Source: Candidatus Latescibacterota bacterium (lineage in GTDB: Bacteria; Latescibacterota; CBDEFO01). Taken from it: DNA of 64,000 bases. The notes under the pieces were generated by a model, which worked only from the letters and a program-made list of their open reading frames with translations, had not been told where the DNA came from and did not search any database. The position numbers were made by a program, and so were the translations under genes. Below are positions 708-63,913 of this stretch, piece by piece; position 1 is the first letter of the stretch; every line of letters begins with the position of its first letter. The stretch is taken from the NCBI GenBank assembly GCA_965248755.1, contig OZ252149.1:1408001-1472000 (forward strand). Reading direction: 5' to 3'.

Positions 708-732
708 CAAGAGTCCGAATCCTGGAAGCAAT

Positions 733-823
733 CCCCGATTGAATCTATCGGGGACAAGGGAGGGCAGGAGGTGCCTGTCTACCCCAGATTGAATCCCCGA
801 TTGAGTCTATCGGGGACCGGGGG
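733..823. repeat. Short hairpin element CCCCGATTGAATCTATCGGGG: one simple copy (733-753) and one nested copy (782-823)
   Basis: Read directly from the sequence; the 7-bp arms CCCCGAT/ATCGGGG are perfectly complementary. Confidence 0.9.
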
Positions 824-2327: not shown

Positions 2328-2361
2328 CCCCCGATTGAACCCCCGATAGATTCAATCGGGA
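2328..2361. repeat. Nested short hairpin element adjacent to a REP-like repeat
   Basis: CCCCCGATTGAA followed by CCCCGATAGATTCAATCGGGA. Confidence 0.85.
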
Positions 2362-2399
2362 CTCAAGGGATAGGAGGAGGTACTCTGTCTACTGTTCTG

Positions 2400-31699: not shown

Positions 31700-32855
31700 A
31701 GCGGCAAGGTCATCGTGAAGAAGAAAAGGTGCTACAGCTGGTTTCCCAGCGATCGTACCACCTTCCTGATGGTCAGTTGACGGTAGGTTGTCAGGCCTCA
31801 ACCTCTGCCAATCATTTGGGAATAGGTTGAGTAGTCTTTGTGTCAAAGGACTACGGATCAACTTAGAATCACTCAGACGATCCGACACTGACTGACAATT
31901 GCCCGTCAAAGACGTCCGGCCAGAGGATGAGCCGATCCTGCGGGATAGTGCGCGATGCGAGTTTCCTGGCAGTGAGGTTTTCGTGGTATGAGTTTTGGAA
32001 CCTCGATCTGCGCTCCGAAGCTGAGGCGCGCAGATTCAGATCCCGGGAGGATGAGCACTTCCTCAGGGAAACTCTATGGTGTCGGCTCATAAGTTATTAG
32101 TGACGCGATCTTGGGATAAGGGTGCTGCCTGGGAGGGTCGTGAGTGGACAGTGCTGGGATACACGAATGTCCACAGTGTTCCGCTCCATCTACTCCTTAC
32201 GATGCTTGAGGACGGGCGTTCCTCTATCCCATCTACGCTATGTGGAAGGGTGGGACCAGAGAGGGTCTGATCTTCCGGTCGACCGATGGGGGAGAGACGT
32301 GGAGATTGCATGGGGCGTACCCGAGAGCAGGCGGCGAGTGGTAGATTTTGGAGGTGGAGCCGGGATTGCTCTTCAGGACACATCCGCAGTGGCTATCGTT
32401 GGAGACATCCGAGGTCCTCGACAGATTCAATCGGGGATAGGATATTTGCTCTGGAGGTCTGGTCGGAGGACGGCGGGTTAACGTGAACATACCCTGTGGA
32501 GGCGTCCTTTCAGGGCTATCCGAATCATCTATTGAAGTTAAGAGATAGTCGCATCTTATGCACGTTCGGGTATCGCCGCAAGCCTATGGGAGTGCGCGCG
32601 CGCATAAGCGAGGATGTAGGACGCACCTGGGATTTAGATCACGAATATGTGTTGTGTGATGATGGAGGCACCACTTCAGACCCTTGGGGTCCTCCGCACT
32701 CTGAGATTCCCGGGTTCGGTAGTTCCGACGTGGGTTATCCGACCTCAGTAGAGTTAGAGGATAGTTCGATTTTTGCTGTCTATTACATCAAGACTCCTGA
32801 CGCCATAACTCACGTTGCATGCGCGCGTTGGCATCCCGACAGGGACAGGCTGTAG
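31700..32855 (+). pseudogene. Decayed paralog of the downstream BNR/sialidase-like gene
   Basis: Collinear DNA similarity to 32906-34051 with stops and frameshifts; the C-terminal part FQGYPNHLLKL…DVGYP is intact. Confidence 0.85.
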
Positions 32856-32905
32856 AAGTAAGCTGGAAATTCACTCGATGTGATAAAAACAGGGAGTTCT
32901 ACTCA

Positions 32906-34051
32906 ATGGAACACACGATAATTTTGAAGGAAAAGGGGCGCTACAACGCGTTTCCCGTTTTGGACCACCTCCCGGACGGACGGTTGACACTAGGCTTCAT
33001 CTCCTCGCCAGTTGGCGATCATATGGGAATGGGGGATTGGGCAGTCTTTGTATCATCGGACAGCGGTTCTACCTGGCAGCGGTCGGACGATCCGACGCTG
33101 CCTCCCAATTGGCCCGGGACTACCCCGCGTGAGAAGTACGATAGACTCTCCCGTATAATGCCCGACGGCAGCTTTATGGCAGTGGGATCGGTAGGGCATG
33201 AGCTTTGGGATTTCGGTCGGCGCGCCGAAGCTGAGGCTCGTGGATTGAGAATAATAGAGGACGAGATAATCTCCCAGCAACTCCCCGGAAAGCTCGTCGT
33301 GTCGGGGCATCGGCTGGTGGTGATAAGGTCGCAGGATAAGGGCGCCACGTGGGATCGGCGAACGTGGACAGTGCCGGGATACATTAGTCTGATTGGATTC
33401 CCGCGCGGCACGGTCCTTGAGGACGGAACCTGGCTCTTCCCCGTCTACACGAGTCGGAAGGATGGAGGCGGTGACGGTCTGATCTTCCGGACTGCCGACA
33501 GAGGGGAGACGTGGAGGCTCTATTTAGCAGTCCCAAGGGTGTGCAACGAGTGGGCATTGGTAGAGGTAGCACCTGGACGTGTACTGGGACACCTCCGCTG
33601 GGGCTATAGATGGGGACATCCGGAGTATGACAGGATGTACACCCTGGAGGTGTGGTCCGAGGACGGCGGTACAACGTGGACTCAACCGGTGGAAACGAAG
33701 TTCCAAGGTTATCCGAACCATCTGTTGAAGTTGCACGATGGACGCATCTTGTGCACATTCGGCTATCGTCGTAAACCTATGGGAGTGCGTGCGCTCATTA
33801 GCGAAGACAGAGGAAACACCTGGGATTTAGATCACGAGTATGTGTTAAGAGACGACGCCGGTACCACTTCGAGTTCTTGGCCTGCAGTGAAACACGCGCA
33901 GCCCGGGTCCGGAAGTTCTGATGTGGGCTATCCGATCTCGACGGAGCTGGACGATGGCTCTATCCTTACAGCCTATTACATTACGCAACCTGATGCCATA
34001 ACCCACGTGTCTGTCACGCGCTGGCATCCCGAGGGGGACAGGACGTCGTAG
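32906..34051 (+). CDS. BNR/Asp-box beta-propeller (sialidase-like) protein, no signal peptide
   Basis: YNAFP; Asp-boxes SSDSGSTW, SQDKGATW, TADRGETW, SEDGGTTW, SEDRGNTW; DVGYP; GGGAG RBS before ATG 32906. Confidence 0.85.
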   Translation: MEHTIILKEKGRYNAFPVLDHLPDGRLTLGFISSPVGDHMGMGDWAVFVSSDSGSTWQRSDDPTLPPNWPGTTPREKYDRLSRIMPDGSFMAVGSVGHELWDFGRRAEAEARGLRIIEDEIISQQLPGKLVVSGHRLVVIRSQDKGATWDRRTWTVPGYISLIGFPRGTVLEDGTWLFPVYTSRKDGGGDGLIFRTADRGETWRLYLAVPRVCNEWALVEVAPGRVLGHLRWGYRWGHPEYDRMYTLEVWSEDGGTTWTQPVETKFQGYPNHLLKLHDGRILCTFGYRRKPMGVRALISEDRGNTWDLDHEYVLRDDAGTTSSSWPAVKHAQPGSGSSDVGYPISTELDDGSILTAYYITQPDAITHVSVTRWHPEGDRTS

Positions 34052-38662: not shown

Positions 38663-39581
38663 TACATTCTCCACGATTGAACCCCCGACTGGATCGGGGA
38701 TTGGGGATGCCCTCAACAAAGCAATCCAGTTTTTAAGTTCCCGCGACATTGAAAGTCCCCGGATCAACGCAGAGAGGCTCCTTTGTCATGTGCTGGACGT
38801 TGACAGCTCGTTTGCTCTCTACCTTGAGCCCGATCGCTTGCTATCTCAGAACGAGTTGGACTCTTATCATTATCTTCTCAATAAAAGGATTAAAGGAATT
38901 CCACTCCAGTACATCGTTGGGAAGACAGAGTTTATGTCCCTTCCCATCAAAGTCGAGTCCCCGATCTTAATCCCGCGCCCTGAGACTGAAATTCTCGTAG
39001 AAACTGTCCTCGACAGATTCAAAGGCAACGAGAGTCGTCTACTTCTGGCAGCCGACATAGGCACAGGCGCAGGAAACATAGCTGTATCCCTTGCCCGCTA
39101 CATCCACGGGATCCACATCTACGCCACAGACATATTCCTCCCAGCTCTCAGACTTGCCCGATACAATTCCCGACTCAACGATACCGCCTTTAGAATAACG
39201 TTCCTTCACGGAGACCTTTTCGATCCCTTCAAAAGATACGACCTCCAGAACAGACTCGACCTTATAATCTCCAATCCTCCATACGTAAGGAGGTCGGATA
39301 TACCGCACCTTCCCGCCGAGATAAGGAATCACGAATCCCACAGAGCCATTGACGGCGGAAATGACGGACTCGACTTCTACAGGAGGCTTATCCCCCAGTC
39401 TTTTGAATATCTCAGATCCGGCGGTATCCTCGCCTTAGAGATAGGGTTAGGACAGTCAGAATCCGTATTCCAGATGATCAGAGACCTCAAAGTCGTGCGA
39501 CCACTGCGTGCTTTTACCCCTCCAAAGATCGTCAAGGACTTCAATGGGATAGACAGGGTTGTCCTGGCGCATAAGATCTGA
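38649..39581 (+). CDS. prmC: Release factor glutamine methyltransferase
   Basis: PLQYI.G, LIPRPETE, DIGTGAG, SNPPY, DGGNDGL; follows prfA. Confidence 0.96.
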   Translation: MAGNNTFSTIEPPTGSGIGDALNKAIQFLSSRDIESPRINAERLLCHVLDVDSSFALYLEPDRLLSQNELDSYHYLLNKRIKGIPLQYIVGKTEFMSLPIKVESPILIPRPETEILVETVLDRFKGNESRLLLAADIGTGAGNIAVSLARYIHGIHIYATDIFLPALRLARYNSRLNDTAFRITFLHGDLFDPFKRYDLQNRLDLIISNPPYVRRSDIPHLPAEIRNHESHRAIDGGNDGLDFYRRLIPQSFEYLRSGGILALEIGLGQSESVFQMIRDLKVVRPLRAFTPPKIVKDFNGIDRVVLAHKI

Positions 39582-39748: not shown

Positions 39749-40987
39749 TTGAAAAGAGTTGTAGTCACAGGCATCGGACTCGTCGCGCCCTTGGGATGTT
39801 CAAAAGACATAGTCTGGAAGAACGTCTCACAAGGAATCTCAGGCATCTCCCATCTGAAATGGGCGAAAGACCCCTTCCCCGTCAAAATCGGAGCGCAGGT
39901 TAGTGATTTTGAACCTGACCCCGGCGATAGCGGATATGACCGCTTTATCCAATTTGCCCTATCGGCAACAAGACAGGCAGTAAAAGACGCAGAACTCACG
40001 TTAGATTCTGATCTAAGTCAGCGCACAGGCGTCCTTATCAGCTCCAGCAAAGGAGGCATATCCACCTTCGAAAAATATCACTCCCGTCTTTTGGGATCTG
40101 GTCCTTCATCGATTCCGAAAAACCTCTGGTTCAACATAAGCCAGGCGTCCGCCTCTCAAGCTGTATCTAAACTTCTATCCCCGATAGATTCAATCGTGGA
40201 TCAACGTTTAGAGGGACCTTCCTACGGCATAGTATCTGCGTGCGCCACCGGAGCTCATTCCATCATCTCGGCATCCCACCTGATAAGCGAGGGAAGAGCC
40301 GACATTATGATAGCCGGGAGCAGCGACGCCTCCTTGACTCCCCTGATATTAGGGGGCTTCAGCAAGATGGGAGCGCTATCCCAAAAAGCCTCCCGCCCAT
40401 TTGATGCCGAAAGGGACGGATTCGTCCTCGGTGAAGGATGCGGTATCGTCGTCTTGGAATCCTTGGAGGGAGCAAAAAGGAGGAAGGCCAGTATCTATGG
40501 AGAGATACTTTCTACCGTGGCAATGTCTGAAGCCCATCACGTATCAGCTATCGAACCCGGAGGAAAGACTATAGGTCGAGCTGTCCAACTCGCTATACAG
40601 AGGGCTGATCTCTCCGCGAAAGATATAGATTATGTTAACGCTCATGCGACAGGGACGGTAGAAGGGGATATAGCTGAAACTTTAGCCATAAAAAGAGCGC
40701 TGGGAGAAAATGCTTACAGTGTAGCTATAAGTTCGACCAAATCTATGATGGGGCATCTACTGGGGGCCGCTGGGAGCGTCGAGTTTATCGTATCTTTACT
40801 CTGTATGGAAAACAACTACGTCCATCCGACTATAAATCTGGAAAATATAGATCCCCAATGCGACCTCGATTATACACCCAACGCAGGTGCCGCCAGGACC
40901 TTAAAAAATATAATGTCCCTGTCTTATGGCTTTGGAGGACACATCGCTGTTCTGTTAGCGGGCAAGCCTTTAAGTTATAGTAATTAA
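39749..40987 (+). CDS. fabF: Beta-ketoacyl-ACP synthase II-like protein
   Basis: RVVVTGIG, ACATG, RPFD.ERDGFVLGEG, NAHATGT, KSM.GH.LGAAG, S.GFGG. Confidence 0.85.
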   Translation: MKRVVVTGIGLVAPLGCSKDIVWKNVSQGISGISHLKWAKDPFPVKIGAQVSDFEPDPGDSGYDRFIQFALSATRQAVKDAELTLDSDLSQRTGVLISSSKGGISTFEKYHSRLLGSGPSSIPKNLWFNISQASASQAVSKLLSPIDSIVDQRLEGPSYGIVSACATGAHSIISASHLISEGRADIMIAGSSDASLTPLILGGFSKMGALSQKASRPFDAERDGFVLGEGCGIVVLESLEGAKRRKASIYGEILSTVAMSEAHHVSAIEPGGKTIGRAVQLAIQRADLSAKDIDYVNAHATGTVEGDIAETLAIKRALGENAYSVAISSTKSMMGHLLGAAGSVEFIVSLLCMENNYVHPTINLENIDPQCDLDYTPNAGAARTLKNIMSLSYGFGGHIAVLLAGKPLSYSN

Positions 40988-44253: not shown

Positions 44254-45627
44254 ATGGAAAAGGTCATCATAGGAGTCTCAGGTGTAAGAGGCATCGTAGG
44301 CCAGGGGCTATCTGCCAAGGATGTTCTTGAGATGTCCGCCGCCTTCGGAAAGATCTGTGAGGTAGGAAACGTGCTGGTGGGAGGGGATACCAGGACGTCG
44401 GGAGATATGCTCAGATACGCCGCTATATCGGGCCTCCTCTGGGCAGGATCAGACGCAACAGATGCAGGAATTTGTCCCACCCCCACAATTCAGATGGCCG
44501 TTAAGGACGGTGACTTCCAGGGAGGAATAGCGGTAACTGCAAGTCATAATCCCCCCGAGTGGAACGGACTCAAATTCATAGGCCCAGACGGCATATTCTT
44601 ATCCCCGATAGATTCAATCAGGGATAAAGAAAAAGGCAGAAAACCTGCAGATCTCTTCCAAAAATGCAAGGTTCCTCCCCCGGACTGGGAAAAAGTAGGG
44701 CACGTCAAAGCTGCCAGTTGCTTCATAAAAGAACACATCTATAAAATACTCTCACTCGATCTTGTGGATGTTCAGAAGATAAGAGAGAGAAGGTTCAAAG
44801 TAGCGATAGACTGCTGCAACGGGGCAGGTTCCCTTATAAGCCCCCTCCTTCTGAGACATCTCGGATGCGAAGTGATCGAACTGAACTCAAAGCCTGATGG
44901 GATCTTCCCTCACGATCCCGAACCTGTTCCTGAGAGCCTTGGACAACTCTCTACAGCCGTGGGAGAATATGGTGCAGATGTGGGATTTGCGAACGATCCT
45001 GACGCCGACCGACTCTCCATCGTATCGGAAAAGGGGGAGGCTATCGGCGAAGAATACACGTTAGCTCTCTGTGTAAAATTTGTATTGATAAAGAAGAAAG
45101 GTCCAGTGGTCGCTAATCTATCTACGAGCCGCATGTTAGACGATATTGCCGCTGAATTCGGCACAAAGGTGCACAGATCAGCCGTCGGAGAGCTCAACGT
45201 GGCAAAAAAGATGCAAACGGTAGATGCCGTCGTAGGAGGCGAGGGCAACGGAGGTGTTATGCTCCCTGCATTGCATCTGGGGAGAGACGCTCCTCTGGGC
45301 ACGGCGTTAATTTTGAGCTATTTAGCCCAATCTGAAAAGACTCTCTCAGATCTTGCATCTTCCATCCCGAAGTACGTTATGCTCAAACAAAAACTGGACC
45401 TTGGGACCAAAGAACCATCGGAGGTGCTCCATTTAGTAAAGCAGATCTATTCCAAAGAATACATGGATCACACAGACGGGGTTAAGGTTATGGGACCAGA
45501 TTGGTGGCTCCACGTCAGAGCATCAAATACCGAACCTGTGCTCCGCCTCATATCCGAAGCCCCACAAAGAAAAAAAGCCGAACTTTTGTGCAAAAGCATC
45601 AAAGATAGACTGAGAAAATTCAAATGA
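44254..45627 (+). CDS. Phosphohexomutase (GlmM / PMM-PGM family)
   Basis: SGVRG, TASHNP, DPDADR, GGEGNGG, VRASNTEP. Confidence 0.93.
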   Translation: MEKVIIGVSGVRGIVGQGLSAKDVLEMSAAFGKICEVGNVLVGGDTRTSGDMLRYAAISGLLWAGSDATDAGICPTPTIQMAVKDGDFQGGIAVTASHNPPEWNGLKFIGPDGIFLSPIDSIRDKEKGRKPADLFQKCKVPPPDWEKVGHVKAASCFIKEHIYKILSLDLVDVQKIRERRFKVAIDCCNGAGSLISPLLLRHLGCEVIELNSKPDGIFPHDPEPVPESLGQLSTAVGEYGADVGFANDPDADRLSIVSEKGEAIGEEYTLALCVKFVLIKKKGPVVANLSTSRMLDDIAAEFGTKVHRSAVGELNVAKKMQTVDAVVGGEGNGGVMLPALHLGRDAPLGTALILSYLAQSEKTLSDLASSIPKYVMLKQKLDLGTKEPSEVLHLVKQIYSKEYMDHTDGVKVMGPDWWLHVRASNTEPVLRLISEAPQRKKAELLCKSIKDRLRKFK

Positions 45628-47290: not shown

Positions 47291-47502
47291 TCAAACAAAG
47301 ATAGTAGACGGCGCATCTCCTCCCTTCCTTTTAGATTACTTCGCTACGCCCCGGTTGAATCGGGGGTCCGATAACGGTTCGTTGTTGCTTGCAATGAGGT
47401 CTGATGAGACCTTTGGTCATTGCAAGGGGTGAAACCCTGAAGCAATCTCACGTAGACTACCTCTCCTTCTTAGCTGTTCACTTGTTTTCAATGAATCCGA
47501 AG

Positions 47503-52973: not shown

Positions 52974-53068
52974 CCCCCGAATGAATCTACCCCCGATTGA
53001 ACCCCCAATTGTGATCCTCTATTGAATCTATAGGGGGTTGGGGGTTGGGGGTTGGGGACTATCGGGGG
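52974..53068. repeat. Multiply nested short hairpin elements
   Basis: Four successive left arms followed by a run of TTGGGG / ATCGGGGG right arms. Confidence 0.8.
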
Positions 53069-61666: not shown

Positions 61667-63835
61667 ATGGATTTAATGGACAGCAGTTTTTTTAGAAAGG
61701 CGTGGCTATTAGTCCTTCTTATTGTGTTAGTGGGACTTATAACGAGAAAGTCTCATGGTGAGACGATTATAATAGGAGGCGGCCCGGACAATCTCCGCTG
61801 GGACGAACAATTTTCCGAGATAAAAGTCATCGATTTTGGCACTGATTCCGTCTCGGTTCAACCTAAACGGACTGATCCTAACGATAACATTTCCCTGGGG
61901 ATAATCAATAGGGGAGGGTCAATAACGTCACCTAACGCCGACAAAGCGCTTAGAGTGAGCAATAAAGAAATAGAAAAAAGATTACAGAATATGGTAAGCG
62001 GTGATACGACTGCTTTTGTAGTTAGGGGGATAAAAACTGTAGGGATCATAATTACAATAGATTTAGGCGAGCGATTCGCGGTCAGAAAGATCAAGTTTTT
62101 CCCAAGGAGTGGCTCTGAAGACTTTTTCTTGAGGGGCTATCAGATAAGATTAAACGATGGGAGTGAGGAGCAGAAGTTCTTAGGAGGGAGTCCGGAGTTC
62201 AGGTTCTTTATGTCAGTGGATGACAACGAGGAGCCGATAGTTGACATAGATGTCCCAGTGCAATTTGTCCGTTTCATAGAGTTACAACAGCTTCAACGAT
62301 CGGAGTGGGAGATAGACGAGTTTCAGGTCTTCGGCGAAGGTTTTGTGGCCGCAGCGTCGTATATATCAAAGATATTCGATCAGGGACAGCTTTCCGTCTT
62401 TGGCGGTATAGAATGGTCCAAGGGAAGTATAGGCCAACAGGCCAAATCGAGTGCTACTGTATCGACAAGGAGTGGAAGCGGAACAAGCACAAGTAACGTG
62501 GTGTGGAGGGATTGGTCTCAGCCCTATCGGGCAGGCGTCCTATCTGATATTGTATCGCCAGCACCGCGCCGTTTCTTTCAGTTTCGCATCCTCTTCGAAA
62601 GCGACGATATTGAGTCCGCCACAACTGTCGATTCGCTCGCATTTGAAGTTTCTCCAGCAGTAGCCGACTCGATATTGGGCGAGATATGGCCCCAAAATAC
62701 GCTCATCGGGCAAAACACTACCTTCGCCTACACGATAAGATCGTTCAACAGCACAGGCTTCGACACCCTCGAAATAAAGACCCTGGCGCCGGTGGACGTA
62801 GTAAGTTCGGTGCAAATAGATGGAATTGATGTTGATATTGACAAAAGAGATGTTATAGACGGGTTCAAAATACGCTTTCCGAGGATCACAGGGGACAAGA
62901 CCCTCACGGTAATTTTCGACAGCGTCGCCCTGCAGGTTAACACTGTGTTCAGTGGAAGGGTCTCTGATAGTCAAAGACCCGATTGGCTACCCCAATCCGC
63001 TGTAGATGGAGACGCAGCCCCGGATTTTGGCGTATTCGCGGATGGATTGGGCAATATCTATATTGCGGACGTGTTCAATCACCGGATATTTAAGGTGGAT
63101 ACGTCGGGCATCATCAATACTGTAGCAGGAAATGGCATTGCTGGATTTTCCGGTGATGGTGGTCCAGCTACCAGTGCGAGCCTGAATGTTCCTTCTGGCG
63201 TATTCGTGGATGAATTGGGCAATATCTATATCGCAGATACGAGCAATCATCGGATACGTAAGGTGGATACGTCGGGCATCATCTCCACCGTGGCAGGAAA
63301 TGGCATCCGGGGATTTTCCGGTGATGGTGGTCCAGCTACCAGTGCGAGCTTGGATCTTCCTTGGGGAGTATTCGTGGATGAATTGGGAAATATCTTTATC
63401 GCGGATCAGAAAAATAAACGGATACGTATAGTGGATACGTCGGGCATCATCTCCACCGTGGCCGGTACGCTGCCAGCCGTAAATGACCTTTCCGTAACGA
63501 TCCCTGTGGGTGACGACGTGATCCATTCCATGGAGGCCGCGCCCAATCCCTTTACACCAAATGGAGATGGAATAAACGATATCCTCTTTGTAACCTACGA
63601 CATTTTAAACCTGACAGACATAGTCCCGGTCTCGGTAAGTATTTACGATTTAAGCGGAAGGTTAAGGAAGGAGATCTACTCGGGTCATGATGCCAGCGGT
63701 AGATACCAACGGGACTGGGACGGGAGTGACGATGACGGACAACTGTTGCTCCCCGGATCGTATTTACTTCGTGTAGAGGTAGAAACAGATACGGTGACAG
63801 AGGGTAAAACAGAAACCGTATCTTTAGTCTATTGA
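61667..63835 (+). CDS. Secreted paralog with an inserted NHL-repeat module and FlgD-Ig-like C-terminal domain
   Basis: WRDWSQPY…SPAPRRFFQ; three GVFxD..GNIYIAD..N.RI units; PNPFTPNGDGIND. Confidence 0.82.
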   Translation: MDLMDSSFFRKAWLLVLLIVLVGLITRKSHGETIIIGGGPDNLRWDEQFSEIKVIDFGTDSVSVQPKRTDPNDNISLGIINRGGSITSPNADKALRVSNKEIEKRLQNMVSGDTTAFVVRGIKTVGIIITIDLGERFAVRKIKFFPRSGSEDFFLRGYQIRLNDGSEEQKFLGGSPEFRFFMSVDDNEEPIVDIDVPVQFVRFIELQQLQRSEWEIDEFQVFGEGFVAAASYISKIFDQGQLSVFGGIEWSKGSIGQQAKSSATVSTRSGSGTSTSNVVWRDWSQPYRAGVLSDIVSPAPRRFFQFRILFESDDIESATTVDSLAFEVSPAVADSILGEIWPQNTLIGQNTTFAYTIRSFNSTGFDTLEIKTLAPVDVVSSVQIDGIDVDIDKRDVIDGFKIRFPRITGDKTLTVIFDSVALQVNTVFSGRVSDSQRPDWLPQSAVDGDAAPDFGVFADGLGNIYIADVFNHRIFKVDTSGIINTVAGNGIAGFSGDGGPATSASLNVPSGVFVDELGNIYIADTSNHRIRKVDTSGIISTVAGNGIRGFSGDGGPATSASLDLPWGVFVDELGNIFIADQKNKRIRIVDTSGIISTVAGTLPAVNDLSVTIPVGDDVIHSMEAAPNPFTPNGDGINDILFVTYDILNLTDIVPVSVSIYDLSGRLRKEIYSGHDASGRYQRDWDGSDDDGQLLLPGSYLLRVEVETDTVTEGKTETVSLVY

Positions 63836-63836
63836 G

Positions 63837-63857
63837 CCCCGATAGACTCAATCGGGG
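63837..63857. repeat. Short hairpin element immediately after the stop codon
   Basis: CCCCGATAGACTCAATCGGGG. Confidence 0.9.
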
Positions 63858-63913
63858 GCTTTAACTGATCTAAAAGCTTCTGCTGTTCTAGCGCGTAACC
63901 AAGGGGGGTACTT

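Follow-up and report, generated by a model that had tools for sequence, protein, structure and literature searches.

The open reading frame at 44254-45627 of the window (the whole 64,000-nt stretch of Latescibacterota DNA that was analysed) encodes a phosphohexomutase that carries a copy of a 21-nt palindrome in frame at 44603, where it reads as S117-PIDSIR-D124 (Table 1). The residues SPIDSIR (117-123) form a clean 7-residue insertion, which is a gap in 22 of 22 aligned same-phylum relatives outside the genus, is also missing from the two PDB homologues shown for this protein, and is common to the source genome (G000) and the genome of a sister species (G001). The initial annotation had read the palindrome as an in-frame addition to this gene, and the gaps bear it out; its proviso that distant orthologs might carry aligned residues at the site applies to none of the 22 relatives. 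Contigs from four sequencing runs (one of which may be the source sample) bridge the 44603 site without gaps, and the insertion is therefore not an assembly slip. In the AlphaFold model of the phosphohexomutase (pLDDT 89) the chain is confidently predicted except at residues 120-129, which form a loop ahead of helix 131-137; low confidence is expected there because the alignment has no residues at these positions. The mapping onto predicted structures proposed earlier for several proteins was thus carried through for the phosphohexomutase. As a hairpin, this coding copy has already decayed (folding z -0.56, sense strand).

Table 1. Copies of the palindromic unit in the 64,000-nt window and the phosphohexomutase gene (window coordinates).
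Feature	Position	Strand	Remarks
Phosphohexomutase gene	44254..45627	+	Host gene; best match archaeal-type GlmM TIGR03990, above cut-off
23-nt hairpin unit (T + 21-mer + A)	44602..44624	+	In frame in phosphohexomutase; encodes S117-D124; net +7 aa
23-nt unit	40178..40200	+	In frame in fabF (39749-40987); SPIDSIVD; about +6 aa; common to G001
Older unit	38670..38707	+	prmC N-terminus; nested 19-nt short variant at 38682-38700
Degenerate unit	32415..32437	+	BNR-repeat pseudogene; +6 aa vs adjoining intact paralogue
Consensus unit	732..754	.	Intergenic
Unit nested inside older copy	794..816	.	Intergenic
Unit adjoining arm of older copy	2340..2362	.	Intergenic
Short variant, 17 nt	47349..47365	.	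5-nt loop class
Degenerate, multiply nested composite	52974..53036	.	
23-nt unit	63836..63858	.	Intergenic, immediately 3' of stop of ORF 61667-63835; longer composite there in G001

With up to 3 mismatches allowed, CCCCGATWGAWTCWATCGGGG has eight matches in the window and none in any of 100 shuffles. Six are exact or carry one mismatch (733, 795, 2341, 40179, 44603 and 63837), one carries two (32416) and one carries three (53016). Among the intergenic copies listed by the initial annotation, those at 733, 795, 2341 and 63837 stand, while the entry at 47349 is a short variant and that at 52974 a degenerate composite. The three further genic copies that it listed are also present. FabF has about 6 residues more than its PDB homologues, and the G001 fabF gene holds two copies, the second in a different register. 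At the prmC N-terminus the annotated 38-nt element turned out to be an older copy with a short one nested in it; the short variant replaced 4 nt, leaving the gene 15 nt longer than in G001. Where the copy lies, the BNR pseudogene has 6 residues more than its intact neighbour, and G001 has an additional nested short copy at the same site. The pseudogene itself (window 32000-34051) is a decayed tandem duplicate of that neighbour (32819-34051) and is also broken in G001, at different places.

In 544 oriented copies of the source genome the bases on either side of the 21-mer are paired (T..A in 260, C..G in 160), so that the unit is 23 nt long, Y-CCCCGATWGAWTCWATCGGGG-R. It folds into an 8-bp stem with a 7-nt loop (folding z about -3). 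A subfamily has a 4-nt tag, CCTG being the commonest left 4-mer (37 of 544 copies), and the short variant, whose loop has 5 nt, numbers 20 copies. Nesting is common, with 146 of the 544 copies lying in, or adjoining, another copy, and double changes from G-C to A-T recur within the stem, 23 copies sharing one at the same pair. At two loci, L159 and L373, a copy adjoins a repeat of the CGTC type that has a stem starting with CCCCGA and ending with ATCGGGG, hinting that the 23-mer may have originated from the stem of such a repeat.

The genome scan at up to 3 mismatches that had been proposed yielded cumulative totals of 135, 331, 464 and 549 copies in G000 with 0, 1, 2 and 3 mismatches allowed, respectively, 86 of the 549 being genic, and G001 has 339 copies at up to one mismatch. 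Among 59 other genomes of the phylum that were searched, 58 had no match and one had a single match. Of 11 further genomes tested, 8 hold the 21-mer in multiple copies (11 to 69); they are recorded as Deltaproteobacteria (4), PVC group, Thermodesulfobacteriota and unclassified (2). The 21-mer also occurs in at least 114 metagenomic stretches; the viral contigs searched gave no exact match. Single-copy matches, as in the remaining three genomes, and some A/T-tailed metagenomic matches look like chance or terminators and were left out of the family. In-frame copies in other lineages lie in RelA/SpoT, a LuxR-type regulator, an IS630 transposase (L280:1060-2151) and an IS256 transposase ORF (L228:467-934), and the last two suggest that IS transposase genes may serve as a vehicle across phyla. 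Copies in G000 show no strand bias relative to replication (259 of 544, p=0.28) and no orientation bias relative to transcription (159 vs 160), and their gene contexts roughly track intergenic length.

Comparison with G001, the only relative compared, covered 2.56 Mb (56% of its genome) at about 95% identity to G000. Both flanks could be mapped for 257 of the 549 copies in G000 and 270 of the 328 in G001, giving 391 junction calls. Those in which the replaced bases numbered from -8 to +8 were retained (83), and removal of look-alikes left 61. G001 contigs C2 and C4 share one region, possibly through assembly redundancy, and look-alike events were taken out before anything was counted. The 61 independent sites, filled in one species and empty in the other, divide into 25 filled in G000 and 36 filled in G001. 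The hairpin is thus gained site by site between the sister species, in both directions. Length differences of 247-274 bp between G000 and G001 also cluster around copies at many sites, as would be expected if the hairpin were part of a larger composite repeat that is itself mobile.

Net gains at these 61 sites were +19 (22 events), +27 (10), +18 (8), +20 (7), +21 (3), +26 (3) and +15 (2), with six singles, and none at +22 or +23. They fall into two modes, at net +19 (range 18-21) and net +27 (25-28). In the main mode the 23-mer substitutes for about 4 bp of target, whereas in the second a CCTG or CTTG tag enters together with the 23-mer, nearly cleanly and mostly after GG, and a few of these events look like 4-bp duplications. 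Seven of the 22 four-base replacements lie inside an older intact copy, mostly at CCCCGA[TAGA]TT, and here the direction of the event is certain, since the element is present in intact form in the empty allele. Among the remaining 15 targets, several of which lie within GTAGACAG heptamer repeats, NCGA/TCGN was overwritten in 7 against a background of 2% (p about 1e-8, for a motif picked post hoc). The overwritten 4-mers are accordingly enriched for NCGA and for the TWGA of the element's own arm. Proximity to other repeats is marked: of 463 intergenic copies, 143 have a GTCATTGCGAG-type repeat no more than 45 bp away, vs 3.9% of random intergenic positions (8-fold), and there is a 5-fold enrichment near GTAGACAG heptamers, figures that would be inflated if composite repeats had multiplied after a single insertion.

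With genes from a simple purpose-made caller (3880 genes, 82% coding in G000), the 86 genic copies fall in 82 genes. Deep in genes there are 16 copies per Mb, a density about 36-fold below the 567 per Mb of intergenic DNA, so that genes are tolerated rather than preferred landing sites. The 36 deep genic copies are read as SPIDSIG (10), SPIESIG (9), PRLNLSG (9) and PDRFNRG (8), an even use of four registers (equality chi-square p=0.97), and genic copies of G001 use the same four. SPI-type readings number 54 among all 86 genic calls (p=0.02), an excess due to terminal and weak calls. A fixed codon register, described by the initial annotation as always the same, is ruled out genome-wide by the even split, by the recurrence of the four registers in G001 and by the two registers within G001 fabF; the phase shared by the four genes of the window is then a matter of chance. 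Two of the six phases of the unit hold a stop, and not one as had been stated; stop-containing registers are missing from called genes by construction, and this carries no evidential weight.

Frame does matter. When events were classed by the empty allele, the net gain was a multiple of three (15 to 27 nt) in 7 of 7 deep-genic events and in 11 of 40 intergenic ones (p=0.0005), 14 events at gene edges or in weak genes having been excluded. Frame preservation in genes is selection, not design, and the modal +19 event shifts the frame, which fits the depletion of copies in genes. In-frame genic copies add a predicted 5-9 aa at loops, linkers and termini, and in G000 the hosts include SecA, MutS2, ProA, MeaB, a DinG-type helicase and an RND permease. 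ProA of G001 (L082:17330-18604), which has the element peptide, is only about 2 residues longer than a PDB homologue, as if a native loop had been replaced, and the ProA copy of G000 (C1:2356906) is a longer nested version. The added predicted peptides are probably near-neutral passengers, and coding insertion, already known as such, is a tolerated by-product with no special register. The earlier proposal of an ultra-short mobile palindrome from which housekeeping proteins acquire short peptides is upheld by the gap in all 22 relatives, by the filled and empty sites and by the frame statistics, while the enrichment and phase bias of genic copies for which it had suggested a check did not appear: they are rarer than intergenic ones, and the deep copies lack a phase bias.

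The search for a mobilising enzyme covered the Y1_Tnp, GIY-YIG, GxxExxY, RT, four-helix-bundle and Ku families. No Y1_Tnp (RAYT/HUH) match was found in either G000 or G001, and Ku was found in 0 of 5 genomes searched. Neither Pfam nor a custom HMM detected a stand-alone GIY-YIG gene in G000, where the only match was a 608-aa ORF that is taken to be UvrC from its length; two further carriers, G061 and G069, whose completeness is not given, also had none. GxxExxY genes were present in 1 of 5 carriers, RT genes in 2 of 5 and four-helix-bundle genes in 4 of 5, the last as a broken copy in G000 (C1:2579539-2579850) and absent from G001. This broken gene is flanked by GTAGACAG heptamers, the same heptamers that are frequent landing sites. 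Two RT-family genes occur in G000 and no RT match was found in G001, G061 or G069. One of the two is broken and adjoins a 305-aa ORF (L271, C1:3730098-3733640), a pair that we take to be retron-like, and the other is a 513-aa ORF (L272). Several protein families of G000 have about 30-60 members each and are presumably IS transposases.

Searches around the copies were also blank. In flanks of up to 1.5 kb, 64 distinct copies from metagenomes showed no GIY-YIG gene and no nuclease gene that recurred, and 144 of the 146 small G001 genes adjoining copies matched no nuclease family (E<=1e-12), the other two being scanned separately. The suggestion to look for a nuclease gene flanked by the hairpin therefore gave no recurrent candidate in these two sets, and the earlier remark that no cognate transposase is visible in the window extends to the genomes for Y1_Tnp (G000 and G001) and for stand-alone GIY-YIG (G000). 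No copy in G000 lies within 90 bp of any ARAGORN tRNA start. From the side of the enzymes, the 21-mer at up to 3 mismatches was found at 0 of 20 GIY-YIG loci, with a close variant adjoining one (L253). Two observations give indirect leads to the enzyme. G001 has one 107-aa GIY-YIG gene (L249), which lies between NTS-like hairpins, and the carriers G067 and G068 have tagged sister hairpins in tRNA remnants beside small GIY-YIG genes (L253 and L261); one tagged sister hairpin and the local variant differ by a swapped loop pair and an end pair. At L261:1250-2400, L253:1300-2200 and L263:1300-2400 small GIY-YIG genes lie amid tandem tRNA remnants, and tagged hairpins of several kinds break up the D- and T-loops of these remnants.

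We think it probable that the palindrome is a non-autonomous hairpin of 23 nt which enters one site at a time, mostly by overwriting about 4 bp, and survives in genes only where the net gain is a multiple of three. A small single-strand nuclease that recognises hairpins (Ssn-like GIY-YIG) and acts in trans is likely to move it. On balance we favour a course in which single-stranded target and donor hairpins would be nicked and host repair synthesis would then copy the donor hairpin into the target. More tentatively, the nickase may be an Ssn-like GIY-YIG protein supplied in trans, which would now be absent from G000 or too diverged to detect. Genes retain only frame-preserving insertions, in any of the four open registers. 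In the passages available from the work on SsnA, this enzyme binds tagged ssDNA hairpins and cuts a few nucleotides upstream; these passages concern DNA cutting, not joining or mobilising, and a mobile origin is only hypothesised by the authors (PMC11893778). A bolder version, which we regard as rather doubtful, would make this the clearest case of a separate paste-over mode of mobility. A hairpin of 23 nt, one of the smallest mobile DNAs, would write over about 4 bp at self sites and sites resembling NCGA, cross phyla inside IS transposase genes and be driven in trans by a small GIY-YIG protein acting as transposase, continually sampling 5-9-residue loop insertions across essential proteins.

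Type II topoisomerases cut with a 4-nt stagger, and host enzymes alone might suffice if such a staggered break were trimmed (-4) or filled (+4) and the hairpin copied in by template switching, with no dedicated protein. This would agree with outcomes at 23-4 and 23+4 and never at 23, with the few +27 events that look like 4-bp duplications, and with the failure to find a cognate gene near copies. We nevertheless hold it to be unlikely, because none of the five genomes searched has Ku, most +27 events bring in a fixed donor tag and not a duplication, and the recurrence of one 21-mer in unrelated phyla points to sequence-specific recognition. An HUH enzyme (RAYT/IS200-like) or another recombinase might excise and paste the hairpin, in the manner put forward for GTAG REPs, with the CCTG/CTTG tag in the role of the GTAG tag. 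This seems less probable still: the combination of tag and hairpin and the clean +27 entry after GG do resemble REP anatomy (PMC3733652), but Y1_Tnp is missing from G000 and G001, there is no lagging-strand bias, and a single-cut paste leaves the loss of 4 bp unexplained.

The hairpin could instead be a selected functional signal (a terminator, an uptake or binding site, or a useful peptide) that gene conversion has spread, the SPI[D/E]SIG peptide being what is selected in coding copies. Its stable fold, the recurrent double changes in the stem and the SPI-type majority among genic calls would suit such a role, whereas the equal use of four registers in deep copies, the absence of orientation bias to transcription in contexts that roughly follow intergenic length, the rapid turnover at 95% identity and the decay of the coding copy at 44603 speak against it; the register and turnover data largely refute it, and we consider it very improbable. 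Mechanisms of the target-primed reverse transcription type typically leave small target deletions of variable size at one junction, and deletions of this kind, together with the two RT-family genes of G000, would fit RNA-templated insertion of a short hairpin RNA. There is, however, no RT match in G001, G061 or G069, though G001 gains as many copies (36 vs 25 events), and no sense bias, which makes this the least probable route, with hardly any weight in our assessment. A hairpin copied into a nicked target in trans remains our preferred reading.

Apart from the REPs linked to RAYTs, the multiplication of 20-30-nt repeats is still to be explained, and the present genome pair yields dozens of datable events with readable junctions. 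Any candidate nuclease can be held to the concrete junction rule that these events give: 23 nt enter and about 4 bp are lost at NCGA or within the element itself, or the tag and 23 nt enter after GG. In addition, the element maps insertion-tolerant loops in conserved proteins such as the GlmM-type mutase, FabF, SecA, MutS2, ProA, MeaB, the RND permease and RelA/SpoT.

The initial annotation had taken the Rickettsia palindromic elements (RPEs) as precedent, which are about 105-146 bp long and fused in frame into protein genes (PMC3184786). Palindromic repeats in frame in protein genes are common to both systems, but RPEs are five to six times longer than the 23-nt unit, which occurs in other phyla, adds 5-9 aa and is polymorphic in its gains between sister species; the nearer precedent is the 20-30-nt class of SDRs (see below) and intragenic REPs. 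The element also departs from MITEs, as most events delete target bases and the few apparent 4-bp duplications do not amount to a constant target duplication. GTAG- and CGTC-tagged REPs, as described by Di Nocera et al. (2013, PMC3733652), are 20-40-nt hairpins with a 4-nt unpaired tag and hundreds of copies. Most of these are intergenic, some are read in frame within known genes, and there was no dedicated transposase for the CGTC class. Our element is likewise a tagged hairpin with hundreds of mostly intergenic copies, some in frame. It differs in that its tag is CCTG/CTTG and not GTAG and is borne by few copies, in that neither of the two genomes has a RAYT (Y1_Tnp) gene, and in that single units, not doublets, are gained without bias in transcription direction.

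Ssn nucleases are small single-domain GIY-YIG proteins that cut beside tagged ssDNA hairpin repeats termed NTS or SRM, according to Chenal et al. (2025, PMC11893778). Repeats of the NTS-like and the related CGTC type also occur here, with an excess of copies in their vicinity; the 23-mer flanks no GIY-YIG gene in G000 or in the compared part of G001. The SRM motif core was matched by 0 of 549 copies, with a regular expression that also missed the NTS-like flanks at L249. A full-text literature search with the element's sequence and peptides, whose coverage stops short of subscription journals, returned no paper that its title or the start of its abstract would mark as related.

We know of no mobiliser for the small dispersed repeats (SDRs) of the Nostocaceae. 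These repeats are 21-27 nt long and include in-frame genic copies. Passages in papers that cite Elhai et al. (2008, Genome Res 18:1484) give the SDRs as about 20 nt long and thought to be mobile, and have SDR5 entering precisely at HIP1, a short CG-containing palindrome, between its third and fourth base (PMC5861425, PMC4390886, PMC2884548, PMC3116915). The present element resembles them as a dispersed 23-nt unit in 549 copies with filled and empty orthologous sites between relatives (61 events). It differs in its sequence, in its hosts (Latescibacterota, Deltaproteobacteria, the PVC group and others) and, compared with the SDRs as those passages portray them, in that its main outcome is the loss of about 4 target bases and in its self-targeting; CGATCG is under-represented in G000 (0.56 of expected). 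As far as the citing passages portray the SDRs, the element works like these cyanobacterial repeats and the intragenic tagged REPs. Set against the SDRs as the citing passages present them, the overwrite rule, the self-targeting and the frame statistics are what is new here.
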